The notes: generated by a model from the letters alone, not told the origin. DNA of 64,000 nucleotides from Kiritimatiellia bacterium (GCA_051884915.1 JBJEWF010000087.1:30595-94594), one strand, 5' to 3'. Shown: positions 1 through 58,228, numbered from the stretch's first letter. Numbers and translations: made by a program.

Positions 1-2347
1 GTTCGGCGTAGGGCGTCCTGTCCAGAAGGCAGATCTTCAGATCGCTCGAATTGGCCACCGTATTCGCGCCCCAGCTGCGGAGACGGCGATGGACGAGATC
101 GGAGTAGACGTTGTAGTAGTCGGGGCCATACTTGCGGAAAAGATTCGCGCTGGAGAAATCGTAGACGCGCGTTTCTCCGCGCGCCCCGTAGAACGGGAAG
201 AGCAGATCGTCGCGCGTCGTCCAGAACTTGGAGAACGCCGTTGCGCCCGCGGCGCCCGGTGCGGGCGGAAGATCCGTGAAGAAGCAGTCGCGGTCCGGCA
301 CCGTGCAGCCGCGGCGCGGCGTGCAGTTGTCGCCGTTCATCGGCGTCATCGCGGACGACGCCGAAACGCGCACCGGCCCGAAACTCCAGTAGAGACGGCC
401 CTCCGGATCGACGAACCACCACGTTCCCTTCGCGTCCCGGTGCGTCCGGAAGCGGCCAGTGGCTTCCAGCTGCGGACCTTTCGTCCACCCGCCGTATTTG
501 TTCCAGTCCGACGGACCGGGATGCGCCGCCAGGTCCCGGGCTTCGGCCGCGGCGGCCGCCTTCAGGTCGGCGTCGCTCTTCGTCTTGCCCGGCCACTCGC
601 GGAACTTGAACTGGCCGTAGACGTCGATGCAGGGCAGAAAGTCCTTCGTCGGCATCTTCATCCAGTCCGCGTGCGCGTGCGGACCGGGGAAGGCCTTCAT
701 CTTGTTGTCGGGCTGGCCGGGCCGGTAGAAGGAATCGACGATCTCGGCCGGCGTCATCTTCGCCCATTCCAGGCGCAGCGGAACGGCGGTGCGCTCGGCA
801 ATCAGAATCGGCGAGTCCCACATCGGCAGATGCCGGACGACGGTGCGGTCCTTCTGGCGCACGAGATTCCATTCGGGAATCTCGAACACGCGCCCCGTAA
901 TCATGTCCGCCCACACCGGATTCTTGAACTGTCCCCAGACGGGAAGCTCCACCTGGTCGAAGCCCAGCATGTCCTCCGGCCGGCGGTCGTTGTACCAGAA
1001 GAACCAGACGGGACGGCCCAGGCGCGAGAACTTCGCGCAGGTCATTTTCCGCGGCGCCATGTCGCGCGGATCGAAACGGCGCTCCAGCACGAATGGCGCC
1101 GCCACGTCCAATGCGACCGGCAGCGTTTCATCGTCGAAGAAGCTGAACACGTTCTGCATCGCGTAGAAACTCGGGCGGCGATAGACGAATTCCTTCAGCG
1201 TGTTCGAGCGGATGAGGCCGAAACTCTGCAGCATGAACGTGTACTGCAGGTCGATCATCGTGAACACGTTGCACGGGATGGCCCGCGCGGCGTCGCCGAT
1301 CGTCCGGCGGAGATTCCACTTCGCCTGCGAATATTCCGTCCACTCGACGCTGTGGATCGCGTGCGCGAATTCGAGCTGCGCGGGGCAGCCGACTTCGCCC
1401 TGCATGATGTCGTAGGCGCCCGAATAGGATTTCACCAGTTTGCGCAGCGGTTCGGCAAAACCGGCGTAGGAGGTGTCCGGATTCGGCGTATAGGGATGGT
1501 AGATCCAGTATTTGACCAGATCGAGCGCGCCTTCCTTCTTCAGCTTTTCGAGAACGACGGCATAGTCGCTCTTGGCCGGGTCGCGGCCATTCCAGGAGAT
1601 CGCCGTGACGAAGCACGTCGCATGCGGCTGGACTTCACGGATGGCCTTCGCCGTGCGGTAGACCATCTCGGCGTACTCCGTCGCCTGATTGAACGGCTCG
1701 TTCCAGATCTCCCACTCGTCGACCACGTCCTTGTAGCGCGCGACACAGGCTTTGCAATAGCGCAGCCATGCGTCAAAAGCCTCCGGCTTGTCCGTCACCT
1801 GCTTGACGCGCATGCCAAGACGGAAGTCGCTGCCCCACACGGGATTGCCGTAGGAGAGGCAGATCCAGGGCTTGACGCCCATCGCCGCCATCTCGCGGAC
1901 CTGCGGGTCGAGCCAGGTGAAATCGTACGTCCCCTTTTTCTGTTCGGTCTTCGCCCAGCCGGAGAACAGGCGGCCGTGCTTGACGCCCAGCGGCCCCAGC
2001 CAGTTCTTGTAGGCGTTCCAGTCGGCATAGTCGCGGTCCAGCGTCTCGCAGCCGATCGACCACTTCGATCCCTTGATCTCTTTGGCGTCGCGAACGGCCA
2101 GCCGGCCGATTTCCTTCATGCCGGGATCCAGCCGGTTCAGCTTCTCCCAGGTGACGCATCGCTTTTCCTTCGGCGCCACCGGCTTCTTGTGGTCGTCCCA
2201 CGCATCCCAGCTTTTGATTTTCGCGGCGTCCTTGAACGACACGACGCCCGGCGCCGCGGGAGCGTCCGCCCGGCAGACGAATGACGCGGCCGCGCCGGCC
2301 AGCATCGCGAAAGCAAATGTCCTTCCCATGAATCCCCCTTGTTCCAT
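1..2347 (-). CDS. Secreted glycoside hydrolase with a clan GH-A-like N-terminal catalytic domain, followed by a region paralogous to the 47846..50011 protein. The 3' end runs off the window.
   Basis: Absent from the ORF track because no stop lies in the window. The minus frame phased on 2347 is open down to base 1, and the short minus ORFs in the track are in the other two frames. ATG 2347 lies 3 nt after AAGGAGGA (2351-2358); a second in-frame ATG is at 2329. The N-terminus [29 protein letters not shown] is signal-peptide-like. DEWEIWNEP and IMQGEVG resemble the GH-A acid/base and nucleophile strands. The distal part ([61 protein letters not shown]) parallels the 47846..50011 protein. Confidence 0.8.
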
Positions 2348-2361
2348 GAATCCTCCTTGTC
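2326..2361 (-). repeat. 18-bp tandem duplication carrying the ribosome-binding site and start codon
   Basis: Plus-strand units ccatgaatcccccttgtt (2326-2343) and ccatgaatcctccttgtc (2344-2361) match at 16 of 18 positions. On the minus strand each unit reads purine-rich SD-like + ATTC + ATG. This gives two in-frame ATGs (2347, 2329) six codons apart. Confidence 0.85.
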
Positions 2362-2367
2362 GTCCCG

Positions 2368-2376
2368 ATTATACCA
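2368..2376 (-). promoter_or_regulatory. Extended -10 promoter element TGGTATAAT for the edge glycoside hydrolase gene
   Basis: Minus strand reads TTTGGTATAATcgggacgacAAGGAGGAttcATG. The TGn + TATAAT element lies 20 nt upstream of ATG 2347 with the SD in between. The -35 region overlaps the uvrA stop and is poor. Confidence 0.6.
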
Positions 2377-2394
2377 AAATTCCCGATCAGCCGA

Positions 2395-5220
2395 TCAGGA
2401 CAGGAATCTCCCGGTCAGACTTTCCTTGCAGGCGCGGATGTCGGCCGGCGTTCCCTCGGCCACGAGGTATCCGCCCGCGTCGCCGCCGCCGGGTCCCAGA
2501 TCGACGATCCAGTCCGCGCATTTCATCACGTCCACGTTATGTTCGATGACCACCACCGTGTTGCCGCTTTCGCGCAACTTCAGGAGCAGGTTCATCAGCT
2601 TCGAGACGTCGTCGAAATGAAGGCCCGTCGTCGGTTCGTCCAGCAGATAGAGCGTCCGGCCCGTCGACCGTTTCGAGAGTTCCGCCGCCAGCTTGATACG
2701 CTGCGCCTCGCCGCCCGAAAGCGTGGTCGCCGGCTGGCCCAGGCCGATGTAGCCCAGCCCGACGTCCACGAGCGTCTTCAGCCTGGAAGCGAGTTTCGGC
2801 ACCTTCGCGAAGAATTCATGGGCTTCGGCCACGGTCATTTCCAGCACGTCGGAAATCGTCTTGCCCGCGTACTTGACCTCCAGCGTCTCCTTGTTGAAGC
2901 GCTTGCCGCCGCACTGTTCGCACGTCACGTAGACATCCGGCAGGAAGCTCATCTCCAGTTTGCGCACGCCATCGCCGCCGCAGACCTCGCACCGGCCGCC
3001 CTTCACGTTGAAGCTGAACCGCCCCGCCGTGTAGCCGCGCGCGCGCGCGCCCTCCGTTTTGGCGAAGAGCTCGCGGATGTCCGAGAAGAACCCCACGTAG
3101 GTGGCCGGATTCGAGCGCGGCGTCCGGCCGATCGGGCTCTGGTCGATTTCGATGACCTTGTCGATATGCTCGACGCCCGTGAGTTTCCGGAACTTGCCGG
3201 GCGCCCGTTTGGAATGGTAGAAGCGCCGCATCAGTTCGCACTTGAGCGTTTCCTCGATCAGCGTCGATTTGCCGCTGCCGCTCACGCCCGTCACGACCGT
3301 GAACGTCCCCAGGGGAATCCGCACGGTGATGTTCTTGAGGTTATGTTCCGTGCAGCCGCTGATCGTCAACCAGCGACGCCGGCCCGCCGTTGCCGGCGGC
3401 AACGCCCCGCGGTTGCCGGCGATCGACTTGCGGCCCGTCAGATAGTCCGCCGTCAGCGTCCCGCATTTCAGCAGCCCCGCATAGTCGCCCTGGTACATCA
3501 CGCGGCCGCCTTCGCGGCCCGCGCCGGGGCCCAGGTCGATGATGTAGTCGGCCGTCCGCATCATCTCGCCGTCATGTTCCACGACGACCACCGTGTTGCC
3601 GCGGTCGCGCAGCCGTTTGAGCATCGCGATCAGCTTCTCGTTGTCCCGCGGGTGGAGACCGATCGTCGGTTCGTCCAGCACGTAGAGAACGCCCACGAGG
3701 CCGCTGCCGATCTGGGACGCGAGGCGGATGCGCTGCATCTCGCCGCCGGAAAGCGACGACGAGGCGCGGTCGAGCGTGAGGTAGTCGAGGCCGACGTCGT
3801 CGAGGAAGACCAGACGCTTCACGATTTCCTTCAGGACGTCTTTCACCACGGCGTACGCGTCGCCCTGCAGGCTCCTGAAGAACGCCAGCGCGTCCTTGAC
3901 GGGCATGGCCATCACCTCGACGATGCTCCGCCCCGCCACGGTCGCCGCGCGCGATTCGGGGCGCAGCCGCGTCCCATGGCAGTCGGGGCATTCCCGTTCG
4001 TTCTGGTAGGCCTTGAACTTTTCGCGCCGTTCGTCGCTTTCGGCGTTCTCCATCATGCGCTGGACCGTGGCGAGGACGCCTTCGAACGGCTTGTCGCTGT
4101 TGCGCCACGGCAGAACGAGATCGTCGTCGAAGCCATGCATCAGCTTGTGGCGGAAATCGGCGGGAAGCCGTTCGTACGGCGTGTCGAGCCTGACTTTGTA
4201 CTGCTTCGCGATCCGCGCGAGGATTTCGTTGTAGTACATGATCGCCATGTGGCCGGCGCGCCGCCACGGATGGATGCACTCGCGCAGCGGCAGGCTCCTG
4301 TCGGGGACGACCAGGTCCTCGTCGAAATAGTAGAGCGAACCCAACCCGCCGCACTTCGGACAGGCCCCAAAAGGCGAATTGAACGAGAACGACCGCGGCT
4401 TCAGCTCGTCGAAGGAGAGGCCGCAATCGGGACAGGCGTTCTTCTCGGAGAAAACCAGCTGCCGGGGACCTTCGTCCGCCAGCGTCTCGACCAGAACCAG
4501 CCCGCCGCCCGTCTTCAGGCCCAGTTCAACCGAATCGGTCAGGCGCGTCACGAAAGCCGTGTAGGCCTGCCCGTCCGTCTCCTCCTTCGCGCGCATCACC
4601 AGACGGTCGACGACGACGTCGATCGAGTGGTTCTTCTTCCGGTCGAGTTCGGGGACCTCTTCGAGGGCGGTCACGGCGCCGTCCACGCGGACGCGGACGA
4701 AACCGGCCCGCTTGATTTCCGCGAGAACGTCTTCATGGCGGCCCTTGCGCCCTTTCACGACGGGCGCGTAGAGAATGAACTTCGTCCCCGACGGAAGCTT
4801 CAGCAGCGCATCGACGATCTGTTCCGCGCTCTGGTGCCGGACCGGCCGGCCGCATTTCGGACAGTGCGGCACGCCGACCGAGCCCCAGAGGATGCGCAGG
4901 TAGTCGTGGATTTCCGTCACCGTGGCGACGATCGAGCGCGGATTGCCGCCCGTTGTGCGCTGTTCGATGGCAATTGCGGGGGACAGTCCCTCGATGCGTT
5001 CCACGTCGGGCTTCTGCATCTGGTCGAGAAACTGGCGCGCGTAGGCGCTCAGCGATTCGACATAGCGCCGCTGGCCCTCCGCATACAAGGTGTCAAACGC
5101 CAAAGACGACTTGCCGCTGCCCGACAGCCCCGTCACCACCGTGAGCGAGTTCCGCGGAATCCGGACATCCACATTGCGCAAATTATGGACCTTCGCGCCT
5201 TCAATGATTATATCTGACAT
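2395..5220 (-). CDS. uvrA: Excinuclease ABC subunit A
   Basis: 941-aa track ORF. Contains two ABC ATPase modules ([44 protein letters not shown]), zinc-finger cysteines ([30 protein letters not shown]) and the typical UvrA N-terminus [16 protein letters not shown]. Confidence 0.97.
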
Positions 5221-5231
5221 AGGTGGCGGCT

Positions 5232-5260
5232 ATTCTACCATAATGGCTCCATCCCCGTAA
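5232..5260 (-). promoter_or_regulatory. Sigma70-type promoter TTACGG-17-(TGG)TAGAAT upstream of uvrA
   Basis: Minus strand reads TTACGGggatggagccattaTGGTAGAATagccgccacctATG. The -10 ends 11 nt before ATG 5220 and no SD is visible. Confidence 0.6.
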
Positions 5261-5378
5261 CGGCCGCGACAGACGGCGCGGCACCGCGCGCCGTCGGCCG
5301 GGCGGCCGCAGACGGAGGGAGCGGCCCGTCGATTCGCCGCGGTCCGGCATCATGCGGCCGGCGCGGGCGCATCCGGTC

Positions 5379-7478: not shown

Positions 7479-7516
7479 TTCATTTCCCGCCTTTCCCGTC
7501 AATCGCGCCCCTCCGC

Positions 7517-8254
7517 TCACGGACATCCGAACGTCCCGCCCATCTCCAGCAGATCGGGCCGGCGGCGGCTCGTCAAATCAATCGCCTGGCGCTTGCGCCA
7601 GGTCGCGGCCCGAGCATGATCGCCGCTGACGAGGACCCCGGGGACGGCCATGCCCCGAAAGACGGGCGGCCGCGTGTACTGGGGCGCCTCCAGCAGACCC
7701 TCCGTCCCGAAGGACTCGTTCGCCGTCGCCTCGGCCCCGCCGCCGAGGACGCCCGGCAGAAGCCGCACGGTCGAATCGACCATCGCCGCGACGGGAATTT
7801 CCCCGCCGGTCAGGACAAAATCGCCCATCGACACTTCGTCCGTCACCAGACGGCGGACGCGCGCGTCGATCCCCTCGTAATGGCCGCAGAGGAACACCAG
7901 ATGCGCCTCGCCGGCGAATTCCTCCGCCTTCCGCTGCGTATAGGGCGCGCCGGCCGGCGTCGTCAGGACGATGCGGCTCTTCCTGGCGGGCGGCTCCGTC
8001 CGCCCCCCGGCGTGTTCGTAGGACGCCACGCATGTTTCGATGGCATCGTACCAGACGTCCGGCTTCATCAGCATGCCGGGCCCGCCGGAATAGGGCTTGT
8101 CGTCCACGGTACGCCGCCGATCGCGGGAGAAATCGCGGAGATCGACCGTCCGCACGGCGACTTTTCCCGCGCGCGCCGCCCGGGCGACCATGCTCTCGCC
8201 GAGGAACCCGCGGAACATCTCGGGGAAGACGGTGATGATGTCGATGGAAAGCAT
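7517..8254 (-). CDS. trmD: tRNA (guanine37-N1)-methyltransferase
   Basis: MLSIDIITVFPEMFRGFLGESMVARA...DDKPYSGGPGMLMKPD...LCGHYEGIDARV is typical TrmD. I moved the start to ATG 8254, which sits 6 nt after a TGTTATAAT element. The track start 8308 lies upstream of the rplS terminator. Confidence 0.93.
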   Translation of the reverse strand: MLSIDIITVFPEMFRGFLGESMVARAARAGKVAVRTVDLRDFSRDRRRTVDDKPYSGGPGMLMKPDVWYDAIETCVASYEHAGGRTEPPARKSRIVLTTPAGAPYTQRKAEEFAGEAHLVFLCGHYEGIDARVRRLVTDEVSMGDFVLTGGEIPVAAMVDSTVRLLPGVLGGGAEATANESFGTEGLLEAPQYTRPPVFRGMAVPGVLVSGDHARAATWRKRQAIDLTSRRRPDLLEMGGTFGCP

Positions 8255-8260
8255 GGGGCG

Positions 8261-8269
8261 ATTATAACA
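8261..8269 (-). promoter_or_regulatory. Extended -10 element TGTTATAAT, 6 nt upstream of the trmD ATG (candidate leaderless promoter)
   Basis: Minus strand reads ...GGGCCTTTTTTGTTATAATcgccccATG. There is no SD between the -10 and the ATG. Confidence 0.6.
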
Positions 8270-8294
8270 AAAAAGGCCCGCCTTCGGGCGGACC
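8267..8294 (-). terminator. Rho-independent terminator after rplS
   Basis: Minus-strand RNA reads GGUCCGCC-CGAA-GGCGGGCC: an 8-bp stem with one G.U pair and a tetraloop, followed by UUUUUUGU. Confidence 0.8.
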
Positions 8295-8356
8295 TCCTGA
8301 AACGGCACATGGCGAACGCCGCGTCGCGGACTTCACCATCCGCCAGCCGCCACCGC

Positions 8357-8728
8357 CTATTTCTTGCGCAGTTTGCGGACGGCCTTGTGGCTGCAGAACG
8401 TGCGCTCCGTGTAGAGCTTGCTGCGCCAGGACGGGTTGCGCTTGACAACCACGATCTTCTCGACCGCCGGGCTGTTGAACGGGAAAAGCTTCTCGACGCG
8501 CACGCCATAGCTGTCGCGGGAAACCGTGAAGTTGCCCGACGCGTTCTTGATGCCGTTGTCGATTGCGAGGACCTTGCCCTCGAAATCCTGCAGACGGGTC
8601 TTGCCGTCGGCTTCCTTGATGCGCACGGAAACGCGAACCGTGTCGCCCGAATGGAATTCCGGGAACTTCTTGTCGGCGAGCTTCGCCGTCTGTTCCGCGT
8701 TGATTTTGTCCAAAATTGCGATACCCAT
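8357..8728 (-). CDS. rplS: 50S ribosomal protein L19
   Basis: 123 aa. ...FPEFHSGDTVRVSVRIKEADGKTRLQDFEGKVLAI...FTVSRDSYGVRVEKLFPFNSPAVEKIVV matches the L19 pattern, and the gene neighbours rpsP and trmD. Confidence 0.95.
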   Translation of the reverse strand: MGIAILDKINAEQTAKLADKKFPEFHSGDTVRVSVRIKEADGKTRLQDFEGKVLAIDNGIKNASGNFTVSRDSYGVRVEKLFPFNSPAVEKIVVVKRNPSWRSKLYTERTFCSHKAVRKLRKK

Positions 8729-8746
8729 TGTCTCGGACCTTTCTGC

Positions 8747-9043
8747 TTAAGCCTTCTTCTCGGCCTTCCGGCTGCCGGGCTTCTTCGAATGGTGCGGCTT
8801 GAGCTCCGGATTGCGGGCGCGGCGGATGAGGGACGCGACCGTCTCGGAGGGCTTGGCGCCGTGCTTGAGCCAGTCGTCGACACGCGCCAGATCGAGCTGG
8901 AAGTTGTTGTCCTTCATGGCCGTATCGTACCAGCCGAGGATCTCAAGGAACTTGCCGTCGCGGGGCGAACGCTCGTCCGCCGCGACAATGCGATAGGTCG
9001 CATGGTTCTTCGCACCGGTGCGACGCATTCTGATTTTAACCAT
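8747..9043 (-). CDS. rpsP: 30S ribosomal protein S16
   Basis: MVKIRMRRTGAKNHATYRIVAADERSPRDGKFLEILGWYD is a typical S16 N-terminus. 98 aa. Confidence 0.95.
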   Translation of the reverse strand: MVKIRMRRTGAKNHATYRIVAADERSPRDGKFLEILGWYDTAMKDNNFQLDLARVDDWLKHGAKPSETVASLIRRARNPELKPHHSKKPGSRKAEKKA

Positions 9044-9075
9044 TTCTTAACCTCGTTTCGTTGAAAACGGCGCGC

Positions 9076-9104
9076 ATTCTACCATATCGGCGGACTGGAT
9101 GCAA
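9076..9104 (-). promoter_or_regulatory. Sigma70-type promoter TTGCAT-17-(TGG)TAGAAT for rpsP-rplS
   Basis: Minus strand reads TTGCATccagtccgccgataTGGTAGAATgcgcgcc...GAGGTtaagaaATG. The leader is about 25 nt and contains an SD. Confidence 0.75.
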
Positions 9105-9166
9105 GCAGAAACAAGATAAACCGAAATATCGGACGGGCGCCGCCCGAATTGCCGCACGGCAGCCCG

Positions 9167-24400: not shown

Positions 24401-24580
24401 GAAGTCGGGCATGTTCGCCTCGATCAGCGCCGCGATGTAGGCTTCCTCCTCCTTCATCGCCGCGGCGTCGGCGTCGGCCGGCTCGGCGTCGGCCGCGCGC
24501 GCGTGCGCGAACGGAACGAGGACACTCGCGGCCAGCGCCGCGAATGCGAGAGCACGACTATAGGTATGGCTAAATCTCAT
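21419..24580 (-). CDS. Large secreted tetratricopeptide (TPR) repeat protein
   Basis: About 1053 aa from ATG 24580 (MRFSHTYSRALAFAALAASVLVPFAHARAAD, signal peptide). It shows many 34-aa-type A/Y/L-rich repeats (e.g. AYYARSMMAECRKIYQEF, AQYLEGESWQRL). The track start 24688 would run through the pgk terminator. Confidence 0.75.
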   Translation of the reverse strand: MRFSHTYSRALAFAALAASVLVPFAHARAADAEPADADAAAMKEEEAYIAALIEANMPDFAEIVIAAAKKKWPQLGPKLKVLEIQGDLRLGKFADVQKVIDGMQDKNGSEYWALKLSMADAYYARSMMAECRKIYQEFFAKVQKPGPELVDFYVQAGFTWAQICVAERNFDEAVKMYGGLLSKNLPEERWCAVAMEAAGLFINLAEDIKVEGGKDKALLEKRKSYLAQATALVDKLLWKNDLIIVFGKAIAMKAHIEMLTGNVEKAQSLVNGYMPQLAEIHNSLLEQDPDGKLGYVRMSPMPECRYLLAKMLWDVAKAEAKAAKPDDAKITAAILGAKVNGKRNGLGAFNHAVNVYVKYPESSVAADAGQIYEEIAAFVQERYKKDLKKAVNISPDQMAKVRQAQFNNAYSIFKGSDFAGALKAYTALLKQFPDAEEAPGAIAILADCNLALGQNERDAKKKQEFRAAATAAEEELVKQFAGKGDARERAAGDELLRLAIKERETGALARSQEVYDLYFKNFGSHYNASQTALSLAGQAMKAEDWEKAIHFYEMVATAYTNSPYYASSLQCLSTCHGKLGNSHEQESWLRKFANVAKKPSEKISSQLSLALMEQKRGFASFDAAAGTNDVAAAESLRKQGYGGVAGAIKDFRATTALIGKALEDKGLPAAERDTYVLQREQAQYLEGESWQRLQWPADKIPAFRGMAVKAYENYLATNPKGRYAPQILVKIGTIWTAEKNMEKSQEAFARLQKEFPDSDEAKNSVPRLAKTLIEMGLRAEGVAQYRQMLSTPDGKYTAGQFLMAGNALLDAKGWDVAQEAYAKAIDLSKGASNATAIVQMALVGQAKALKGAESWSEAHQKLDDFTEKYGKSRLVVDAYEMIVEIAAEEGRREKDDDMRRKYFNAAVGALKKVRAFKKTKADLDILELRSAEILVRKMEAEEAMGLAAKAEETARLAVSGFQAFLMSHEPTEAHPAKDMTPAELANLERCYAAALPLMAKILPKMADGSKEEKEAKAEQRETIVRYANTYLELFPDGKRKTDVQNALNSVKAD

Positions 24581-24587: not shown

Positions 24588-24616
24588 AGTATAATGGAAA
24601 AACCGGCATGCGTCAA
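24588..24616 (-). promoter_or_regulatory. Sigma70-type promoter TTGACG-17-TATACT, 7 nt upstream of the TPR gene ATG (candidate leaderless)
   Basis: Minus strand reads gtgcTTGACGcatgccggtttttccatTATACTtgccgccATG. The -35 hexamer lies in the loop of the pgk terminator hairpin. Confidence 0.7.
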
Positions 24617-28187: not shown

Positions 28188-30260
28188 TCACCGCATCTTG
28201 GGGGCGTCGAACAGGATTCCCGCCCCGGCGTACGCGGGCAACGTCGTGCGGAAACGGTTGCCGCGCGCATGCACGCCGCGCCGGTCCTCAAAATAGCAGC
28301 TCCCGCGATAGGGGCGCGGATTCAGGAAATCCTCTTCCCGGTCGATCACGATCTCGTTGTCGTAGAAGAAGAGATCGTCTCCGCCGAGGGCATGCCACAC
28401 GAAGCCGACGGGATTCCGGAACCGGCACTTCTCGACGAGAATGCCCGACACCGCCTTCCGCCACGGCGCGGGGGCGGGGAACGCCGGATTCACCTTCGTC
28501 TTCACGAAACTTTCGCAGTTGCGGCGGACGCACGCGCCGGAGAAGATCTCCGTCTTGAACAGCCCGTTTCCGCCGTTCCAGCAATAGTTCGAATCGAAGT
28601 CGCAGTTGCGCACGACCACGTTCGTCACGCCGCGGCCCTCGCACCAGGCCGTATACGTCCACTCCGAAATGATGCCGAGCGGCGTTCCGGTCGTGCGGGA
28701 GAAGACGCAGTCCTCGATTGTCGTGTTGTTGCTTTGCAGGAGATTGCGCCCGAACCCGTTCGTGAAATCGCACCGGCGGAAATGGATGTTGTCCGTCGCG
28801 TAGTCGCTGCGGTAGAGCTGGAAGCACTCCTGCGCCTCGCGCGGCACCTCGCGGTCCATCACCAGTTCGTCGCCCTCGACGGACACCACGCGCCCCCGCC
28901 ACGCGAGGGGGGAATAATCGGCGTTCAGCAGGCCGATCTCCTCGCCCGGCGACGCCCGGAAGAAGTTGTTGCCGCGCGCATTGACGATCTCGAAGCGATT
29001 GGCGCCCTTCTTCACGGCCACGGTCAGGCGGTCGTGGAAGTTGTTCATGTCGTCGATGTGCCTCTCCCACCGGCAGTCCTCGAACCGGCAGAATCCACGC
29101 GATTCGAGAATGTGGTTGGCGTCGGCGGTCGTCGTAATGGCGCGCTTGTCCCTGAGATGGGCCGGCAGGACGACGTTCGCCCGGATCATCTGCCAGTGAT
29201 GCTGGGTCCCCAGCACCTGGTAGGCGAAGCCGCGGCAGGACCACACGTCGATGTCCTCCATCGTCAGATGCTCGTTCGACTCCATGTTGAAGCCGTTCTG
29301 CCCGTAGTAGTAGTGGAGAATCCGCACGAGGGCGCCATCGGGCATCGCCTGCACCTCCCGCCGGTTGCGCGCAGGCGTGAATTTCGGTTCATACACTTTG
29401 ACGAAAGGGCGGTCGGGCATGCGGACCGCCGGCCAGACGCGCAGGACGTTCGGCGCAATCCATTCGTTTTTCGACCCGAAGTGCCCCTCCGCGTAGCCGA
29501 CCTCGCACTGCCAGCCGAATCCGGCGATGTTCGAGCGGTCTTCCCGCATCTGGCCCACGATGATCACCGGCACGGGTGCCGGATATTTCGGATGGCGCTC
29601 CAGATCCGTCAGCTTGAGGTCGAAATAGGAGGCGTCGTCGCGCTCCAGGTCGACATGGCGGCCGACGACCCGCGCGAAATCGGCAAGCGGATCGCGTTCC
29701 CAGTCCCAGTCGACCTTGAAATTGCGGATCACGATCCTGCGGCAGTCCTTGATGAAAAAGTTGCCGCCGTCGCGCGAGATGTCGTACTGCTGCCGATCCT
29801 CCCGGATCCGGCTCTCGCGGCAGAAAACGAGCACGGCCCCCTTGCCGTCGAACACGAAATCCTCCAGCCCGATCAGCGAAATCCCCTCGGGATCGTACAC
29901 CTTGTAGGTTCCGGGCGCGAGTTCAAGGCGGACGGCCTTCATGCGCCGGCACGCGGCGAGCGCCGCCGCAATCGCCGCGCCATTGTCGGTACGCCGTTCG
30001 CTCAACCCGAAGTCCACCGCCCGGACGACCGCGCCATCCGTCGTGCGCGGCCGTTCGACGGTGAACGCGGGGCATCCGCTCGGAACATGGCCGATCGGCC
30101 CTCCGTCGATTTCCGCGGAATAGTCGACGCGGACATCCGCGGCGGCCTTTCCGCCCTCCGGGCCGCGCAAGGCCGGTTTCGCGCCCGCCGTCCCCCCAAG
30201 GGCGCAGGCAGCCGCCAGCATCCCCGCAACGACAACCGCGCCGTGTCTTCTCGTCTCCAT
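28188..30260 (-). CDS. Secreted right-handed parallel beta-helix repeat protein (pectate-lyase-fold glycanase or lyase candidate)
   Basis: 690 aa from ATG 30260 (METRRHGAVVVAGMLAAACALGG, signal peptide). It shows repeated beta-helix rung signatures (FFIKDCRRIVIRNFKV, NIHFRRCDFTNG, NNTTIEDCVFS, VVVRNCDFDSN, ILVEKCRFRN). Confidence 0.65.
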   Translation of the reverse strand: METRRHGAVVVAGMLAAACALGGTAGAKPALRGPEGGKAAADVRVDYSAEIDGGPIGHVPSGCPAFTVERPRTTDGAVVRAVDFGLSERRTDNGAAIAAALAACRRMKAVRLELAPGTYKVYDPEGISLIGLEDFVFDGKGAVLVFCRESRIREDRQQYDISRDGGNFFIKDCRRIVIRNFKVDWDWERDPLADFARVVGRHVDLERDDASYFDLKLTDLERHPKYPAPVPVIIVGQMREDRSNIAGFGWQCEVGYAEGHFGSKNEWIAPNVLRVWPAVRMPDRPFVKVYEPKFTPARNRREVQAMPDGALVRILHYYYGQNGFNMESNEHLTMEDIDVWSCRGFAYQVLGTQHHWQMIRANVVLPAHLRDKRAITTTADANHILESRGFCRFEDCRWERHIDDMNNFHDRLTVAVKKGANRFEIVNARGNNFFRASPGEEIGLLNADYSPLAWRGRVVSVEGDELVMDREVPREAQECFQLYRSDYATDNIHFRRCDFTNGFGRNLLQSNNTTIEDCVFSRTTGTPLGIISEWTYTAWCEGRGVTNVVVRNCDFDSNYCWNGGNGLFKTEIFSGACVRRNCESFVKTKVNPAFPAPAPWRKAVSGILVEKCRFRNPVGFVWHALGGDDLFFYDNEIVIDREEDFLNPRPYRGSCYFEDRRGVHARGNRFRTTLPAYAGAGILFDAPKMR

Positions 30261-30377
30261 CTCGTTCCCCTTTCTCCGAATGTCCGCACGCCGGGAATCT
30301 CCGGAACGCCCTCCGGCAAGGTTCCCGCGCCCGCCCCGTCGCCAGACAGGCGAAACGCCCGTCTCCGCGCATGGTGC

Positions 30378-30407
30378 ATTGTACCACCCGCCGCCCCCGT
30401 CCGGCAA
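30378..30407 (-). promoter_or_regulatory. Promoter TTGCCG-18-(TGG)TACAAT for the beta-helix gene
   Basis: Minus strand reads TTGCCGgacgggggcggcgggTGGTACAATgcaccatgcg. This predicts a leader of about 110 nt, so the track start 30413 lies upstream of the predicted transcription start. Confidence 0.55.
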
Positions 30408-34495: not shown

Positions 34496-35857
34496 CTAGA
34501 CGAGCCGGATCCGACGCCAGGGGCCGAAGTGCCAGCGGAGGAGCGTGCCCACGCAAATGAGCACGACATAGGCGACCATCGTCGCCCAGAGGGCGGGCAT
34601 CGTCGGATGGCGGCGGTAGACGAGAAAGACGATCGGCAGCCAGAAGGCAAAGGAGCAGACGAGCATCCAGACCATCACGAACCGCGTGTCGCCCGCACCC
34701 TTCAGCGCGCCGGACAGAACGACGTCCGCCGCATCGAAGAACTGCCAGGCCACCATCAGGACGAAGAGCGTGAAGCCGAGCGAGATGAAGGCCGCCGAAT
34801 CGAAAGCGGCGGCGTCGGTCGCGAAAAGCGACAGGATCGGCCGGTGGAAGAGCAGAACCGCGGCCGAGGCCAGCAGCACGTACGTTTCGGCCAGGAACAT
34901 CACCCGATAGCCGACCCGCAGCGCGCTTTTCGCGTCGCGCGCGCCCTGATGCTGTCCAACCAGCGTGCTGGCGCCCACGGCGAATCCCTCGATTGGCGCA
35001 ATCAGCAGATAGTTCACGGAAAACGCCGCGTTGGACACCGCAAAGGCCATGTCGCCCACCTTGCCCGTCACGAACACGAAGATCGCGAAAGACAGAATGC
35101 TGAGCACGGACGAGACGCCCGACGGCACGCCGAAGCGCAGGATGCGGACGAAGAGACGGAACGTGGGCGGCGCAAGGGGCGGAGAAGGGGACGCGGCGGG
35201 AATGGCGGGGACATGGCGGTGGGCGAGAACGATCAGGATGGCGCACTGGAGGAACTGGGAAAGAACGGTCGCGAGCGCGGCGCCCGACATGCCGAGGGCG
35301 GGGACCGGCCCCCAGCCGAAAATGAGCAGCGGATCCAGCGCGACGTTGACGAGATTTCCGCCGAGATTGACCCAGAACACGGTGCGCGTCAAGCCCAGCC
35401 CCGTGAAATAGCCCTGCGCCGCCATCGCACCGCAGAGGAAGACGCCCCCCGACATGACAATCGAGTAGTAGATCTTCTCCCGCGCGAGAACGGCGGCGGA
35501 GTGTTGGCACCAGTCGAAGATCTGGTTGCCCAGCGGAATCAGCGCCAGGAACACGAAGCCGCTCAGAAACGCCAGCCACAGGCCCGCATGGTAGCTGCGC
35601 CGGCAGCCCAGGACGTCATGGGCGCCGAAATACTGGGCGCCGAAGGAGCCCGAATAGGAAACGACCGACTGGAAGAAGCAGATGAACAGATAGGCGAGGA
35701 TGCCCGCCGGAAGGACGGCTTCCAGGGCCGCGGCCGATTCGTGTGCCAGAAACACCCGGTCGGCGAACTGCATCAGGGCGTTGTTGGCCATCCCCAGGGC
35801 CAAAGGCCAGACGAACTTCAGAATGTTGCGATAGGAAGCTGTCGCCGGCAGATTCAT
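34496..35857 (-). CDS. MATE family efflux transporter
   Basis: 453 aa from ATG 35857. NILKFVWPLALGMANNALMQFADRVFLA is a typical MATE N-terminus. 12 TM segments. Confidence 0.85.
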   Translation of the reverse strand: MNLPATASYRNILKFVWPLALGMANNALMQFADRVFLAHESAAALEAVLPAGILAYLFICFFQSVVSYSGSFGAQYFGAHDVLGCRRSYHAGLWLAFLSGFVFLALIPLGNQIFDWCQHSAAVLAREKIYYSIVMSGGVFLCGAMAAQGYFTGLGLTRTVFWVNLGGNLVNVALDPLLIFGWGPVPALGMSGAALATVLSQFLQCAILIVLAHRHVPAIPAASPSPPLAPPTFRLFVRILRFGVPSGVSSVLSILSFAIFVFVTGKVGDMAFAVSNAAFSVNYLLIAPIEGFAVGASTLVGQHQGARDAKSALRVGYRVMFLAETYVLLASAAVLLFHRPILSLFATDAAAFDSAAFISLGFTLFVLMVAWQFFDAADVVLSGALKGAGDTRFVMVWMLVCSFAFWLPIVFLVYRRHPTMPALWATMVAYVVLICVGTLLRWHFGPWRRIRLV

Positions 35858-35864: not shown

Positions 35865-35873
35865 AGTATAGCA
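35865..35873 (-). promoter_or_regulatory. Extended -10 element TGCTATACT, 7 nt upstream of the MATE ATG (candidate leaderless promoter)
   Basis: Minus strand reads gatttgTGCTATACTctaccccATG, with no SD. Confidence 0.55.
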
Positions 35874-42066: not shown

Positions 42067-42314
42067 CAGTTTTCGTTCACGAGCTTCGAGACCGCCTTCG
42101 TCACGTCGGCCAGCGTCCGAATCTGGCGGAAGTCCTCGGGATTGACTTTCTTCTTCGTTTCCTGCTGAAGGCGCACGATCAGGTCGACCGCGTCAATCGA
42201 ATCCAAATCAAGTTCGGTGAACAGATTCGTTTCGGGCTTCAACTGCTCTGGCTTGCACTCGAACTCGGCAACGAGAATGTCTTTGATGGTCTTTTCGATT
42301 TCAGCATCGGTCAT
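42066..42314 (-). CDS. Acyl carrier protein (second of two)
   Basis: 82 aa with the phosphopantetheine site LDLDSIDAVDL. Start and stop overlap the neighbouring genes (ATGA at 42311-42314; TGATG at 42064-42068). Confidence 0.88.
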   Translation of the reverse strand: MTDAEIEKTIKDILVAEFECKPEQLKPETNLFTELDLDSIDAVDLIVRLQQETKKKVNPEDFRQIRTLADVTKAVSKLVNEN

Positions 42315-42583
42315 GATTGGGCTTTCTGTTGGGTTTCCACATAGTCGGCCAGCGTCTGGACGGAATGGAAGATTTTCCTGTTGTCGGCGGGGTTCGAGGA
42401 GAACGTGACGCCAAAGGCCTTCTTGACCGCCATGCCCAGTTCAAGCGCGTCAATCGAGTCGAGGCCAAGCCCCTCCCCGAACAGCGGAACCTCCGTCTCA
42501 ATGTCCGCAGCCGTCAGATCCTCCAGATCCAGAGCCGAGACAATCGTCTCCTTCAGCTTGCTTTCAATTTCTTCGCGTGTCAT
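42311..42583 (-). CDS. Acyl carrier protein (first of two)
   Basis: 90 aa with the phosphopantetheine site LGLDSIDALEL. Confidence 0.88.
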   Translation of the reverse strand: MTREEIESKLKETIVSALDLEDLTAADIETEVPLFGEGLGLDSIDALELGMAVKKAFGVTFSSNPADNRKIFHSVQTLADYVETQQKAQS

Positions 42584-42591: not shown

Positions 42592-42600
42592 ATTTTACCA
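42592..42600 (-). promoter_or_regulatory. Extended -10 element TGGTAAAAT, 8 nt upstream of the first ACP ATG (candidate leaderless promoter)
   Basis: Minus strand reads acagtaTGGTAAAATagcggcaaATG. There is no SD and the -35 is poor. Confidence 0.55.
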
Positions 42601-43046: not shown

Positions 43047-43080
43047 AAAAACGAATCTGCCGAACCCGATCATGCGATTC
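43047..43080 (-). terminator. Hairpin plus U-run after the esterase gene, 10 nt upstream of tRNA-Leu
   Basis: Minus-strand RNA reads GAAUCGC-(13-nt loop)-GCAGAUUC (7 bp plus one bulge), followed by GUUUUUC. The hairpin overlaps the stop codon. Confidence 0.4.
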
Positions 43081-43984
43081 AGGGAAGCGACTTGAAATTG
43101 CGCGTCAGCCATTTGGCGGCCAGCGCTTCCCAGCCGTCAACGTCCGTTCCATGCGGACGGATGCCGTAGCCGTGCCCCCCTTTCGGGAAGAGATGCATTT
43201 CGGCCATCACGCCGGCGTACTTCAGCGCGGCGTAGTAGCCGAGGGCATTTTCGACATGGGCGAAATCGTCCTCCGTCTGGACGATGAACGCCGGGGGCGT
43301 CGTCTCGTCCACGGGGAAATCGCCCCGCAGCGTCAGCGGCAGCGTCTTCTCCTTGTTCTCGCCGACCACGAGCATCCACGGATAGATGGGAAGCGAGAAG
43401 TCCGGACGGCAGGAAAACGCATCCGCCGCGTCGACCGCCGCATACGAACGGTGCCGATGGCAGGTCGACACGCGGCAGGCCAGGTTGGCGCCCGCCGAAA
43501 ACCCCATGATGCCCAGGCGCTTTGGATCGATCTTCCACTCGTCGGCCCTGGCGCGAATCAGCGACAAGGCCCGCTGGGCGTCCATCAGCGCCGCGTCGCG
43601 CTGGCCGGGACAACGATACTTCAGGACAAACGCGGAGAAGCCGATCGCGTTCAGCGCCTCGGCGATTTCCACGCCCTCGTGATTGTAGGCCAGAATCGAA
43701 TAGCCGCCGCCCGGACACACGAGAACGGCCGGGCAGACGCCCGATCCCCCGGCGGGGAAGAAGGCGAGTTCGGGCACGTTGACGTCCGTAAGGCGCACGA
43801 TGCCGCCATTCGTGTCCTTGACGGCAAACGCGCCCGTTCCCTTCTGGACGGGGATCCGGCCCTGCGGCCACACGGCAATCTTCACGCCGCGCGCAAGCGC
43901 CGCATCCGCCAGCGCGCGGTCGATTTCCGCATGCACGCCCAACAAGCCCATGCACAGAACTCCCCAAACGACAACCTTGTTCAT
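43079..43984 (-). CDS. Secreted alpha/beta-hydrolase esterase (carbohydrate-esterase or lipase-like)
   Basis: PGGGYS oxyanion region, nucleophile elbow GFSAGA, and a late D/H pair (QTEDD...GGHGY). I moved the start to ATG 43984 (MNKVVVWGVLCMGLLGVHA, signal peptide), because the track ATG 43993 overlaps the -10 hexamer. Confidence 0.75.
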   Translation of the reverse strand: MNKVVVWGVLCMGLLGVHAEIDRALADAALARGVKIAVWPQGRIPVQKGTGAFAVKDTNGGIVRLTDVNVPELAFFPAGGSGVCPAVLVCPGGGYSILAYNHEGVEIAEALNAIGFSAFVLKYRCPGQRDAALMDAQRALSLIRARADEWKIDPKRLGIMGFSAGANLACRVSTCHRHRSYAAVDAADAFSCRPDFSLPIYPWMLVVGENKEKTLPLTLRGDFPVDETTPPAFIVQTEDDFAHVENALGYYAALKYAGVMAEMHLFPKGGHGYGIRPHGTDVDGWEALAAKWLTRNFKSLP

Positions 43985-43991: not shown

Positions 43992-44000
43992 ATTATACCA
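43992..44000 (-). promoter_or_regulatory. Extended -10 element TGGTATAAT, 7 nt upstream of the esterase ATG (candidate leaderless promoter)
   Basis: Minus strand reads ggtttaTGGTATAATggcgaccATGaac. Confidence 0.6.
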
Positions 44001-52668: not shown

Positions 52669-52880
52669 CGCATGCCCTCCTGCCGACCGTTTCCCGCGCG
52701 CGCCATCACCGCCGCCGGGGACCGGCGGCGACGGCTCCGAAAGGCCGGAGCCGCCCCGCGGCGCGGCCGTGTTCGCGCCATTCGCCATTTCCATTTTCCT
52801 TCGCCCGGGAGATCCCCTCCCCTCCGTTGGCGTCCGGACGGGCAAGACGCCCCCGGCGCCCGTGTCGTTTCCATGCGGAG

Positions 52881-52910
52881 ATTATAGCGCAATTCCCCTT
52901 TCAGCCGCAA
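52881..52910 (-). promoter_or_regulatory. Sigma70-type promoter TTGCGG-18-TATAAT upstream of the GH92 operon
   Basis: Minus strand reads gggTTGCGGctgaaaggggaattgcgcTATAATctccgc. This predicts a GC-rich leader of about 205 nt before ATG 52668. Confidence 0.55.
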
Positions 52911-52973
52911 CCCCCGACGACAACGACGGCGGCGGGGACGGAACGGCCGGACGCGAAAGCCCCAGCGCGGCCG

Positions 52974-54643: not shown

Positions 54644-55722
54644 CCGAGAACCTTCCGCCGTGCCAGACACGACATTGCCGCCAGCCGCCCCGTTGCAAAG
54701 GCAAGCGTCAGATTGAAACCGCCGGTCGGTCCGTCGACGTCCAGGACTTCCCCGGCGAAATAGAGTCCGGGCATCTTCCGCGACATCATCGTCCCGGCAT
54801 CGACGTCGTCCAGCGAGACGCCGCCGATCGTCACGATGGCCTCCTTGAGCGGACGCGGCGTCGGGTTGCGCAAGACCCGCCGGTCGTCGCCGAAACGGAT
54901 TTCGATCGCGTATCCGCCGTCCGCGGGATGATGGGCCATCCAGCGCTGGCAGTTGTAGACGGCGGCGCCGCCCAGGCCCCAGCGTTCGCAATCGACTTCG
55001 CCGCGGCAGGCATGGACGACCCGGCCGGCGGCGTCGAGGACCCGCGCGGAACCATTCTCGAAACGGGCGCCGGCCCGGTCCGTCACCGTCCGGTCGTCCA
55101 CTTCAAACCCGACCAGCCCCGGACGCAGCGGTTCGATCCGATGCCCGAGCGCGCGCGCAAAATTCTGTCCGTCGCCCACGGAACCCGTCTTGGGGAACGA
55201 GACGCCGCCCGTGGCGATCAGCACGTTCTGCGCCCGGAGCGAGAAGTTCTCCGTCTGCACGAGGAATCCGCCGTCGCTTTGCGCGACGTCCGTGACGGGA
55301 CAGTTGGAGCAAATCGGGACGCCCGCATCCCGGAGCACGTCGCCAAAGGCATGGACGATCGTCGCGGCCTGGCCCGAATCGGGGAACAGGCGGCCGTCCT
55401 CCATCCGGCGGATTCCGACGCCGAGGCTCCTGAACCCGCGGGCGATGGCCTGGGGCGTGCATTCGCGAAGGGCCCGGGCCGCCCAGGACGCGGCCGGCTC
55501 GCCCAGCTCGCGAAGCAACGTGTCGACCGGGACGTCCTTGGTGAAATTGCACCGGCCATTCGCCGTCATCAGGACCTTGGCGCCCAACCGCGCCTTGCGC
55601 TCGAAGATCACGCATCCCAGGCCCCGTTGCGCCGCAACGGTCGCCGCGAACATCCCCGCCGCGCCGCCGCCGACAATCGCCAGGGGAACCGGCCGTTCCC
55701 GCACCTTCTGGGAGCGCTGCAT
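54640..55722 (-). CDS. HI0933/YhiN-like NAD(P)/FAD-dependent flavoprotein
   Basis: The Rossmann motif AIVGGGAAGMFAA and GAKVLMTANGRCNFT are typical of the HI0933 family. The C-terminal FAGEVLDVDGPTGGFNL is also present. Confidence 0.78.
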   Translation of the reverse strand: MQRSQKVRERPVPLAIVGGGAAGMFAATVAAQRGLGCVIFERKARLGAKVLMTANGRCNFTKDVPVDTLLRELGEPAASWAARALRECTPQAIARGFRSLGVGIRRMEDGRLFPDSGQAATIVHAFGDVLRDAGVPICSNCPVTDVAQSDGGFLVQTENFSLRAQNVLIATGGVSFPKTGSVGDGQNFARALGHRIEPLRPGLVGFEVDDRTVTDRAGARFENGSARVLDAAGRVVHACRGEVDCERWGLGGAAVYNCQRWMAHHPADGGYAIEIRFGDDRRVLRNPTPRPLKEAIVTIGGVSLDDVDAGTMMSRKMPGLYFAGEVLDVDGPTGGFNLTLAFATGRLAAMSCLARRKVLG

Positions 55723-55736
55723 GACTCGCGCGAACC

Positions 55737-56498
55737 CTAGCGGTTCCCGTTGTAGATGCGATGCGCCTGGAGAATGGCGATCAGCGCGAAGACGGCGATC
55801 ATCATTTCGCCGCCTTCTTCAAACGCGGTGAAGAAGGAGGAAATTCCGTCAATGGCCTTGTCCTTCGGCAGCCCCTTCAGATGGCGCATCCACGCCGGCA
55901 TGCGGTCGCAGAGCTGGACCATCACGCCGCTCCCGCCCAGGCAGCAGACGCTCCAGGCCACCGGATGCAGTCTGAAGAACCCGACGACCAGATCCTTCGC
56001 GAAGTAGGCGAGGAGCGCGGCGAAGACGCCGAAGAAGGCGGAAAAATAGAAGAGCACGAACGCCTTGGCGGAAAGGGGAACGGCGCCATTGGTCAGAAAC
56101 CTCATTTTGAACGGCGTCCCCGTCAACGGCGACCCGTCCGGCCGCGTCAGGCCGGAGATGCCGCCATCGGCGTTGACAATGTCCGGAAAGAGCGCGTGCA
56201 TGGCGGCCAGATGCAGATCCAGTTCCTTGCAGACGGCAAAAAAGGCCACGCAGCTGACCGCCGCGCAGAGAAGCGCCCGGCGGCGCGCCGAACCCGTAAA
56301 CGGGCATTTCCACCAGACGAGCGGGACGATCGCCGCGAAAAACGGAATCGTCGCCAGTTCGAAGGGGGAGCGGCCATCGTTGTCGAACGCATGATGCAGG
56401 GCCGCAGGTTCCATGACCGCCCACGTCAACGCCAGCAGGGAAATCCCAATGGCGAATACGACCGGCGACAGCAAAAACGATTTATCCCGTTCCATCAC
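55737..56498 (-). CDS. Polytopic membrane protein of unknown function
   Basis: 253 aa with about 7 hydrophobic segments. I recognise no motif. It sits between the acyl-CoA ligase and the flavoprotein genes. Confidence 0.5.
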   Translation of the reverse strand: MMERDKSFLLSPVVFAIGISLLALTWAVMEPAALHHAFDNDGRSPFELATIPFFAAIVPLVWWKCPFTGSARRRALLCAAVSCVAFFAVCKELDLHLAAMHALFPDIVNADGGISGLTRPDGSPLTGTPFKMRFLTNGAVPLSAKAFVLFYFSAFFGVFAALLAYFAKDLVVGFFRLHPVAWSVCCLGGSGVMVQLCDRMPAWMRHLKGLPKDKAIDGISSFFTAFEEGGEMMIAVFALIAILQAHRIYNGNR

Positions 56499-56519
56499 AA
56501 CAACCCTCGTGTCCGTTGC

Positions 56520-58193
56520 CTATTCGTCCAGCGTGCCCTTGTAGACGACGCGCTTGACTTTCTGAATCGACGTGCGCACAAGCGGCTCCCTTGAGACGAC
56601 GACCTTGCGGACGCGCTTGTAGTCCGCCAGATGCGCGCACTGGTCATGGACGTGCCGCTGGGCGATTTTCACCGCCTCCTCCCAGGGCGGCTCGACGCCG
56701 CCGTTGCGCGCCACCAGCAAATCCATGTTCGGATGGACGACGCATCCCACCCTCTCGCCCGGGAGCCCGCCCGTGAGATAGCCGATGACGATGCAATCGG
56801 ACACGAGGGGGTCGGCGGCAATCCGGTTCTCGACCTCTTCGGGATAGATGTTCTTGCCTTCGCGGTTGACGATCAGCGCCTTCTTGCGCCCGCAAATGGA
56901 AATCAGCCCGTCCGCCGCGATGGTGGCCAGGTCGCCGGTCTTCAGCCAGCCGCCCGCGTCGAACGCCTCGGCCGTCGCCGCCTCGTTGTGCCAGTAGCCC
57001 CTCATGGTGATCGGACCGCGGACCTGCAGTTCCCCCACGCCCTGCTCGTTCCGGTCGGCAAGCCGGACTTCGATGTTCGTCAGCTTCCGCCCGATCGTCC
57101 CGATGCGCGCGCACTTCGGCCCCGAAATGGAAACGACGGGCGAACATTCAGTCAGGCCGTAGCCTTCGAGAACGGGGATGCCCAGAGCCTTGTACCCTTC
57201 CAGCACATGTTTCGGACACGGCGCGCCGCCGACGATCATGAAGCGCAACCGCCCGCCAAGCCCCTTCCGGATCGCCCGGAAGACCAGTTTCTTCAAACCG
57301 ATCTTCATCAGGATCCGCGCCTTTGCCGACTTCTTCAGGTTGTCGTCGATCTTGTCGAAGATCTTCTCGGCCAGAAGCGGCACGCTCATGACAATGGAAG
57401 GGCGCAGGAACTTGACGTCCTCGCCGATCGTATAGAGCGAACGGACAAAATGCATGCCGGCGCCCACGAGCATCGGCACCACGAAATTCGTGCAGAACGA
57501 AAACGCGTGGAAGAGCGGAAGCACCACCAGGAAGACGTCCTCGGGGGAGAGCGTTTCGTCAAACGCCTCCAAGGCGCCCTCGGCATCGGCCGTGAAATTG
57601 CCATGCGTAATCATGGCGCCCTTCGGCTTGCCCGTCGTTCCCGACGTGTAGATGACCGAAGCCACGTCCCCTTCCCGCGCAACGTGCTCGTCGAACCAGC
57701 ACGAAGCGCCGGGCGTCGCCGCCGACTTCAGGCTTTCGTAGTCGTAGACCGGGACGGAACCAATCGGCTCGTAGGCCGTCTCCCCGCCATCGACGACAAC
57801 CACCGCACGGACGGCGGCCAGCCGCGGAACGATGTTCCTCATGACCGGCAGGTGCGCCCGGTCCGTCGTGACGACGACGGCGGACGAATCGGAAAGAATG
57901 TAGGCGATTTCCTCCGTATGGAGTTTGGGATCCAGCGGAACCACGCTGACGCCGGCGCCACTGCAGGCCAGATAGGACTCCATCCAGTCGGGGCCGTTCG
58001 GCAGGATGAGTGCCACGTTCTCGACCTGCGGCTTCAGACCGAATCCGGGGCCATACGCCTCGGCGGTCTTCCGGACGCCCGCCAGAAACTCCGCGTAGGT
58101 GCGCGTGCGCCAGGTTTTGGCGTGACAATAGCGCAAAGCCACGTTCTGCGGCGTTTCCTTCGCAAATCTCTCAAGATAGGAGCGTATCGTCAT
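56520..58193 (-). CDS. Long-chain-fatty-acid--CoA ligase-like AMP-dependent synthetase
   Basis: YTSGTTGKPKGAM, GYGLTE, GWLKTGD and GKNIYPEE are adenylation motifs. I moved the start to ATG 58193 (AGGAAAG 8 nt upstream), because the track ATG 58241 lies inside the predicted -10 region. Confidence 0.85.
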   Translation of the reverse strand: MTIRSYLERFAKETPQNVALRYCHAKTWRTRTYAEFLAGVRKTAEAYGPGFGLKPQVENVALILPNGPDWMESYLACSGAGVSVVPLDPKLHTEEIAYILSDSSAVVVTTDRAHLPVMRNIVPRLAAVRAVVVVDGGETAYEPIGSVPVYDYESLKSAATPGASCWFDEHVAREGDVASVIYTSGTTGKPKGAMITHGNFTADAEGALEAFDETLSPEDVFLVVLPLFHAFSFCTNFVVPMLVGAGMHFVRSLYTIGEDVKFLRPSIVMSVPLLAEKIFDKIDDNLKKSAKARILMKIGLKKLVFRAIRKGLGGRLRFMIVGGAPCPKHVLEGYKALGIPVLEGYGLTECSPVVSISGPKCARIGTIGRKLTNIEVRLADRNEQGVGELQVRGPITMRGYWHNEAATAEAFDAGGWLKTGDLATIAADGLISICGRKKALIVNREGKNIYPEEVENRIAADPLVSDCIVIGYLTGGLPGERVGCVVHPNMDLLVARNGGVEPPWEEAVKIAQRHVHDQCAHLADYKRVRKVVVSREPLVRTSIQKVKRVVYKGTLDE

Positions 58194-58219
58194 CTTCTTT
58201 GCTTTCCTGCGTCTCCGAT

Positions 58220-58228
58220 AATCTATCA
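58220..58228 (-). promoter_or_regulatory. Extended -10 element TGATAGATT upstream of the acyl-CoA ligase gene
   Basis: Minus strand reads gggataTGATAGATTatcggagacgcAGGAAAGcaaagaagATG. Confidence 0.45.

Follow-up and report, generated by a model that had tools for sequence, protein, structure and literature searches.

Promoter boxes placed against start codons point to leaderless or near-leaderless mRNAs in a Kiritimatiellia genome

When a promoter box stands only a few nucleotides (nt) before a start codon, where does the mRNA begin? A stretch of 64,000 nt from an uncultured gut Kiritimatiellia bacterium (GCA_051884915.1, JBJEWF010000087.1:30595-94594) raises this question, as AT-rich boxes of the form TGNTANAAT lie just in front of the ATGs of several of its genes. 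We call the whole stretch the window and count positions from its first letter. A preliminary description had proposed widespread leaderless mRNAs, that is, mRNAs whose 5' end is the start codon, and start codons downstream of those of the longest open reading frames (ORFs). We followed up both claims in the window, in the source assembly (a Kiritimatiellia metagenome-assembled genome, MAG, of 2.80 Mb in 107 contigs with 65.6% GC) and in related genomes. In our assessment, the boxes very probably give genuine leaderless or near-leaderless mRNAs, transcribed from sigma-70-type extended -10 promoters that abut the ATGs.

Boxes and spacing across the genome

At the genome level, the box occurs 350 times, against 27.4 ± 3.9 in the 20 dinucleotide shuffles that served as the chance control. 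With an ATG exactly six nucleotides further on (N6; other spacings are written likewise) it is found 51 times versus 0.2 in the shuffles, and at N5-9 116 times versus 1.6, whereas the reversed pattern gave a single match at N6. The spacing profile is sharp: ATG counts at N6, N7, N8, N9, N10 and N11 are 51, 27, 15, 23, 17 and 9, versus about 4-5 at other spacings, and for 46 of the 51 ATGs at N6 the ORF that follows is 100 amino acids (aa) or longer. The genome-wide count that had been proposed as a check, like the positional enrichment at starts, thus came out strongly positive. With a small number of sites in one window, an artefact of chance or composition, or copies of one repeated element, might have been suspected. 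However, the shuffles and the spacing profile exclude chance, as does the reversed-pattern control, and the flanks and spacers differ between sites, so that we see almost no prospect for this explanation.

The signal is also present when starts are chosen blind to the motif. We called 1589 genes by codon usage with a home-made caller, placing the starts by coding potential alone. TANNNT stands at N6-11 in 129 of these genes, versus about 10 expected from internal in-frame ATGs, and TGNTANNNT in 83, versus about one expected. The bulk upstream profile of all 1589 genes shows a Shine-Dalgarno signal, rich in purines, between -15 and -8, and thus most genes are conventional. The 130 genes with a TGNTANNNT box at N5-11, hereafter box-adjacent genes, start with ATG in 117 cases and with GTG in 13. 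About 40% of the strict boxes (142 of 350, before background correction) have an ATG at N6-11, and 99 of 874 first-gene proxies (11%, with a crude gene caller) carry a strict extended box, a share that may rise to about 20% when plain TANNNT is counted as well. Altogether, the leaderless-type arrangement would concern about 8% of all genes and, among those that are first in an operon, 11% or more; of the strong boxes, it would take in a third to 40%.

Regarding the nature of the boxes, they are putative sigma-70-type extended -10 promoters with the consensus TTGC-N13-TRTGnTAtAAT. Their flanks read T (.77-.86), R (about.65-.75), then T and G (.75), and a weak -35 element, TTGC, with 40-57% per position, stands across a 17-bp spacer. 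In 95 genes selected on bare TANNNT at N6-9, the unselected flanks still read T (.77), R, T (.76), G (.75), n, TA-t-A-A-T, with TTgC 17 bp upstream. Thus, the extended -10 is a property of the sites and not of the search pattern. Boxes before an ATG and boxes before longer leaders have the same flanks, which argues for a promoter rather than a translation signal.

The translation signal deserves a closer look, since the box sits where a ribosome binding site would and AU-rich elements reduce local structure in a GC-rich mRNA. The nonamer, on mRNAs with ordinary leaders, would then serve as an unstructured AU-rich place for ribosomes to land or, like the motif of Bacteroidota group B, as a ribosome binding site of non-Shine-Dalgarno type. 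The sites carry, however, the exact extended -10 consensus TRTGnTAtAAT with its TTGC -35 at 17 bp, and the identical motif is also found 20-117 nt upstream of genes with a Shine-Dalgarno of their own. Moreover, operon-internal genes use Shine-Dalgarno here, whereas in group B the motif is also found before internal genes (PMC6028130). We therefore consider a translation signal very unlikely.

Box-adjacent genes are strongly biased to the first position of the transcription unit, and operon-internal genes keep Shine-Dalgarno. A divergent upstream neighbour is found for 32% of box-adjacent versus 14% of Shine-Dalgarno genes, and a co-directional upstream gene within 40 nt for 10 of 80 box-adjacent versus 276 of 594 Shine-Dalgarno genes. 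The base just before the N6 ATG is most commonly C (0.70), in keeping with the preference of transcription starts for pyrimidine(-1)/purine(+1). Thus, the proposal of widespread leaderless mRNAs stands in silico by its enrichment, promoter flanks and first-in-unit position, but 'widespread' has to be read as about 8% of genes, with most of the genome using Shine-Dalgarno.

In the mechanism that we propose, RNA polymerase would begin transcription about 7 nt (6-9) downstream of the -10 hexamer, and a box 6-8 nt before an ATG would place the predicted mRNA 5' end at the start codon, while boxes at N9-N11 would give leaders of 2-5 nt. Such mRNAs would have no room for Shine-Dalgarno, and a ribosome carrying initiator tRNA would bind the 5'-terminal AUG directly, as we assume by analogy with other bacteria. 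The arrangement would serve roughly 130-190 first-in-unit genes, with operon-internal and most other genes using Shine-Dalgarno. We infer leaderless expression because in Mycobacterium and Deinococcus the identical architecture has been verified with differential RNA sequencing (dRNA-seq), with proteogenomics and with reporter assays (PMC3898074, PMC4007540, PMC12340547). By this analogy, the transcription start positions and the ribosome-binding mode would take the form described.

Sites and start codons in the window

The window holds seven copies of TGNTANAAT, all on the minus strand, versus 0.66 expected, and none of 100 dinucleotide shuffles reached seven. The box of the MATE transporter gene, TGCTATACT, is an eighth site beyond these seven copies. 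This strand bias matches the direction of transcription, since the approximately 48 genes that we called there are all minus-strand genes. Of the 16 4-kb bins, 15 have a negative GC skew, and the window resembles one long co-oriented block, probably leading-strand.

Reading the sites on the minus strand, we found every box and spacing that had been quoted for trmD and for the TPR, MATE, esterase, acyl carrier protein (ACP) and uvrA genes. The same box with a leader and a Shine-Dalgarno was equally recovered at the GH gene, rpsP and the beta-helix gene (Table 1).

Table 1. Promoter boxes and associated features on the minus strand of the window, with their distance to the start codon
Feature	Position	Strand	Sequence elements	Spacing and start codon	Remarks
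trmD extended -10	8261..8269	-	TGTTATAAT	N6 to ATG 8252-8254	predicted transcript start = A of ATG
Terminator-like hairpin, 3' of rplS	8271..8298	-	12 bp		T-run abuts trmD box
TPR gene promoter	24588..24616	-	TTGACG 24611-24616, 17-nt spacer, TATACT 24588-24593	N7 to ATG 24578-24580	
MATE transporter gene extended -10	35865..35873	-	TGCTATACT	N7 to ATG 35855-35857	
Esterase gene extended -10	43992..44000	-	TGGTATAAT	N7 to ATG 43982-43984	longest-ORF ATG 43993 inside box
ACP gene extended -10	42592..42600	-	TGGTAAAAT	N8 to ATG 42581-42583	
uvrA extended -10	5232..5240	-	TGGTAGAAT	N11 to ATG 5218-5220	no Shine-Dalgarno
GH gene box, leadered	2368..2376	-	TGGTATAAT	N20 to ATG 2347	Shine-Dalgarno AAGGAGG
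rpsP box, leadered	9076..9084	-	TGGTAGAAT	N32 to ATG 9043	Shine-Dalgarno GAGG
Beta-helix gene box, leadered	30378..30386	-	TGGTACAAT	N117 to ATG 30260	leader ~110 nt, Shine-Dalgarno present
Acyl-CoA ligase gene promoter	58220..58248	-	TTGATG 58243-58248, 17-nt spacer, TGATAGATT 58220-58228		

At trmD, the terminator-like hairpin that follows rplS runs straight into the box and the ATG stands 6 nt further on, which leaves no room for a leader. For the genes at N6-N8, the leaderless reading put forward earlier holds in silico; uvrA, at N11, is probably better described as having a leader of about 3-5 nt. The trmD and rpsP boxes escaped a simple promoter scan in which at least 4/6 of the -35 had to match, in agreement with extended -10 promoters whose -35 is weak.

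The boxes also bear on where the proteins begin. The longest-ORF starts at 8308, 24688, 35968 and 30413 lie upstream of boxes, the esterase one lies within its box, and that of the acyl-CoA ligase gene, GTG 58241, falls inside the promoter spacer, as had been pointed out. The likely start of the ligase is ATG 58193, with a leader of about 20 nt and a Shine-Dalgarno.

Short starts downstream of the boxes agree with what is known of these families. When compared to NCBIfam models, residue 3 of TrmD corresponds to profile position 2, residue 2 of UvrA to position 4, residue 4 of ACP to position 2 and residue 3 of MATE to position 3. The TPR, esterase and beta-helix proteins open with signal-peptide-like N-termini: a signal peptide, MRFSHTYSRALAFAALAASVLVPFAHARA, for the TPR protein from ATG 24580, and a signal-peptide or lipoprotein-like N-terminus for the beta-helix protein from ATG 30260. 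On other contigs, nine of ten box-adjacent genes start within 6 residues of the family N-terminus, and the open frames of these ten –the ones resembling conserved families in a random draw of 30– run 3-471 codons further upstream. In an exact look-up among the NCBI public proteins, the short forms of TrmD (245 aa), MATE (453 aa) and the esterase (301 aa) were present and their longest-ORF forms were not found. The corrected starts are thus supported by family N-termini within 1-3 residues (TrmD, UvrA, ACP and MATE), by signal peptides, by the public proteins and by the trmD orthologs described below. Since the NCBI proteins use the short forms, these starts are right but already public annotation.

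Some neighbouring features were recorded along the way. The gene order is rpsP, rplS, terminator, trmD (8254-9084), with no rimM between rpsP and trmD. The ACP-like gene (42311-42583) has its best match in the phosphopantetheine-binding subfamily NF006617, not in canonical AcpP. It adjoins the gene of a pectin- or acetylxylan-esterase-like secreted protein (43079-43984), and each of the two has a leaderless-type promoter of its own. At the beta-helix box, an out-of-frame ATG (30372) at N5 opens an Arg/Gly-rich frame of 149 codons (29923-30372, minus strand) that overlaps the start at 30260; it could be a leaderless upstream ORF or a mere GC-rich shadow frame.

Orthologs and distribution among relatives

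The closest UvrA relatives come from gut MAGs (rumen, horse faeces) labelled Kiritimatiellia or 'Verrucomicrobia'. We compared the upstream regions of three genes with those of their orthologs. For trmD, five of 28 congeners keep the hairpin and TGCTATA(A/C)T at N6-N9 from the ATG, with different spacer sequences. About 20 of the 28 have no box and show a TAATG stop-start overlap with an upstream gene ending in ...KLVKK. The TrmD N-terminus, M-x-x-IDIITVFP, is identical in the boxed and TAATG-coupled arrangements.

For MATE, seven of 23 congeners carry a strict extended -10 7-8 nt before the start (ATG at N8 in six of them, GTG at N7 in the other). In three more, a -10 of TATAAT or TATACT type that falls outside the strict pattern stands at N11-12; another three have a leader with AGGA, and three lack a box. 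The box-ATG arrangement therefore appears recurrent yet evolutionarily labile, as MATE orthologs vary in box, leader and spacing. One ortholog (L123, from genome G042) reads TGGTACAAT-N7-GTG, a predicted leaderless GUG start. For uvrA, the spacing is N13 in one relative (L001) and N9 in another (L008). Upstream conservation in 30 relatives is patchy and uninformative alone, and the tblastn start coordinates are unreliable at several loci.

These orthologs matter for a further explanation, in which the boxes are real but act as secondary or internal promoters, the genes being expressed mainly via longer upstream transcripts or from a downstream start. A trmD that is boxless and TAATG-coupled in about 20 congeners does not need its own promoter, MATE includes leadered and box-less versions, and this explanation would also suit the 10 of 80 box-adjacent genes whose co-directional neighbour is no more than 40 nt away. 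However, a terminator abuts the trmD box, box-adjacent genes are strongly first-in-unit, and an internal promoter offers no reason for a sharp N6-N7 peak. Besides, 13 of 14 tested starts fit the family N-termini, so downstream starts are unlikely. Overall, we regard secondary promoters as an unlikely account of the boxes.

Some points do weigh against leaderless or near-leaderless expression as we propose it. The N9-N11 class, uvrA included, is predicted to have leaders of 2-5 nt and not to be leaderless. Upstream promoters could also transcribe some box-adjacent genes. With the crude caller, the shares of 8% for all genes and of at least 11% for first genes are rough. Finally, the 3' end of the 16S gene, and hence the anti-Shine-Dalgarno, was sought in the MAG and not found.

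Within the genus, the box-N6-ATG pattern is found in 23 of 24 congeners, with 19-109 matches versus 0-2 for the reversed-pattern control, and boxes are 5- to 25-fold over control. The remaining congener, a genome that is 60% complete, has 18 boxes altogether. To the class-wide sample of 151 genomes we applied the box-N6-9-ATG pattern. Counts were 114 and 166 in the own genus (control 0-1), 70 in a sister genus (control 4), 36-69 in seven genomes of family f11, genus g11 (control 0-9), and 126 in family f9 (control 18). Most genomes of other orders (about 137 sampled) were within a few-fold of control, near background, and two high-GC genomes of other orders (340 and 400 kb sampled) gave no positional peak, even with plain TANNNT. 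The class search is strict and could miss lineages whose -10 consensus is different; in three genera of the same order (G133, G161 and G029) the signal was not seen with the strict pattern.

In G040, which belongs to another family of the same order, 96 of 244 boxes have an ATG at N6-9 (49 at N7, 38 at N8 and 3 at N6), and the box is nearly always TG[CG]TAGAAT. Seen at N6 only, this genome could be taken to use the box without leaderless starts, which its N7-N8 preference rules out. The preferred spacing is N6 in the genome studied here, N7 in the congener G022 and N7-N8 in G040, which suggests lineage differences in the selection of the transcription start. In another genome (G032), at least five loci share an identical TGCTA[AG]AATAGTCTGTATG, which points to a repeated element or a family of paralogous genes rather than to independent promoters.

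Altogether, the pattern is present in families f1, f4, f9, f10 and f11 of one largely gut-associated Kiritimatiellia order. We give an even chance to frequent leaderless expression being a derived trait restricted to that lineage.

Known systems and meaning of the finding

Extended -10 (TRTGn) promoters are known from Firmicutes and E. coli, and in B. subtilis the element is called the '-16 region'. Mitchell et al. 2003 reportedly described those of E. coli. The boxes studied here resemble them in having T-R-T-G one base upstream of TATAAT and a -35 that is weak or dispensable. They differ in belonging to a genome with 65.6% GC and in their systematic placement against start codons.

The nearest parallel for this placement is found in Actinobacteria, where leaderless starts were mapped by dRNA-seq in Mycobacterium tuberculosis, M. 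smegmatis, Streptomyces and Corynebacterium (PMC3898074, PMC5741613). As in these bacteria, the -10 stands about 6-8 nt before AUG or GUG in a high-GC genome with no Shine-Dalgarno at these starts, the first genes of operons are concerned, and Shine-Dalgarno-led genes coexist. Unlike them, Kiritimatiellia belong to the Planctomycetes-Verrucomicrobia-Chlamydiae (PVC) group, the share of genes is apparently lower, and the arrangement is known here from sequence alone. According to Zheng et al. (PMC3160421), the TAnnnT of high-GC leaderless phyla is low in information, and it is the low-GC Firmicutes that typically show a strong TG. In contrast to the bare TANNNT of those phyla, the present genome, despite its GC content, carries the full, information-rich TRTGnTAtAAT.

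In Deinococcus deserti, 60% of mRNAs are leaderless (PMC4007540), and functional tests are available (PMC12340547). The likeness to Deinococcus-Thermus is that the -10 region directly abuts the ORF, leaderless expression being proven there and predicted here. The differences are the other phylum, the much higher fraction and the TANNNT without strong TG in that group. GeneMarkS-2 places in its group C the bacteria in which leaderless transcription is predicted to be frequent, on the basis of a Pribnow box that stands about 10 nt from the starts. The main text of that paper names Actinobacteria, Deinococcus-Thermus, some Proteobacteria and Firmicutes, and no PVC lineage (PMC6028130). Our genome has the same two start classes, promoter-adjacent and led by a ribosome binding site, a likeness in the computational signature. 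Leaderless operons are 25-50% of operons in group C, and here 11% of first-gene proxies with a crude caller.

A full-text search of the literature gave no paper linking leaderless mRNAs with Kiritimatiellia, and its one hit was a survey in which the class figures only as using Shine-Dalgarno, at 63% (PMC10783764). This is a known kind of expression, and not a new mechanism, in a lineage for which it was apparently undescribed.

At the practical level, gene callers that take the longest ORF or rely on Shine-Dalgarno only over-extend such genes in MAGs by 3-471 codons, and can hide signal peptides and true N-termini. The consensus TTGC-N13-TRTGnTAtAAT provides a ready promoter model for the clade. 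At the biological level, a PVC-group lineage known almost only from MAGs would join the bacteria with a sizeable leaderless gene set, and its patchy distribution within one class gives a comparative handle on the origin of leaderless expression. If the lineage-restricted gain is true, the clade would lend itself to comparisons of how leaderless expression is acquired in a Gram-negative PVC lineage, and of the co-evolution of transcription-start selection and start-codon placement.

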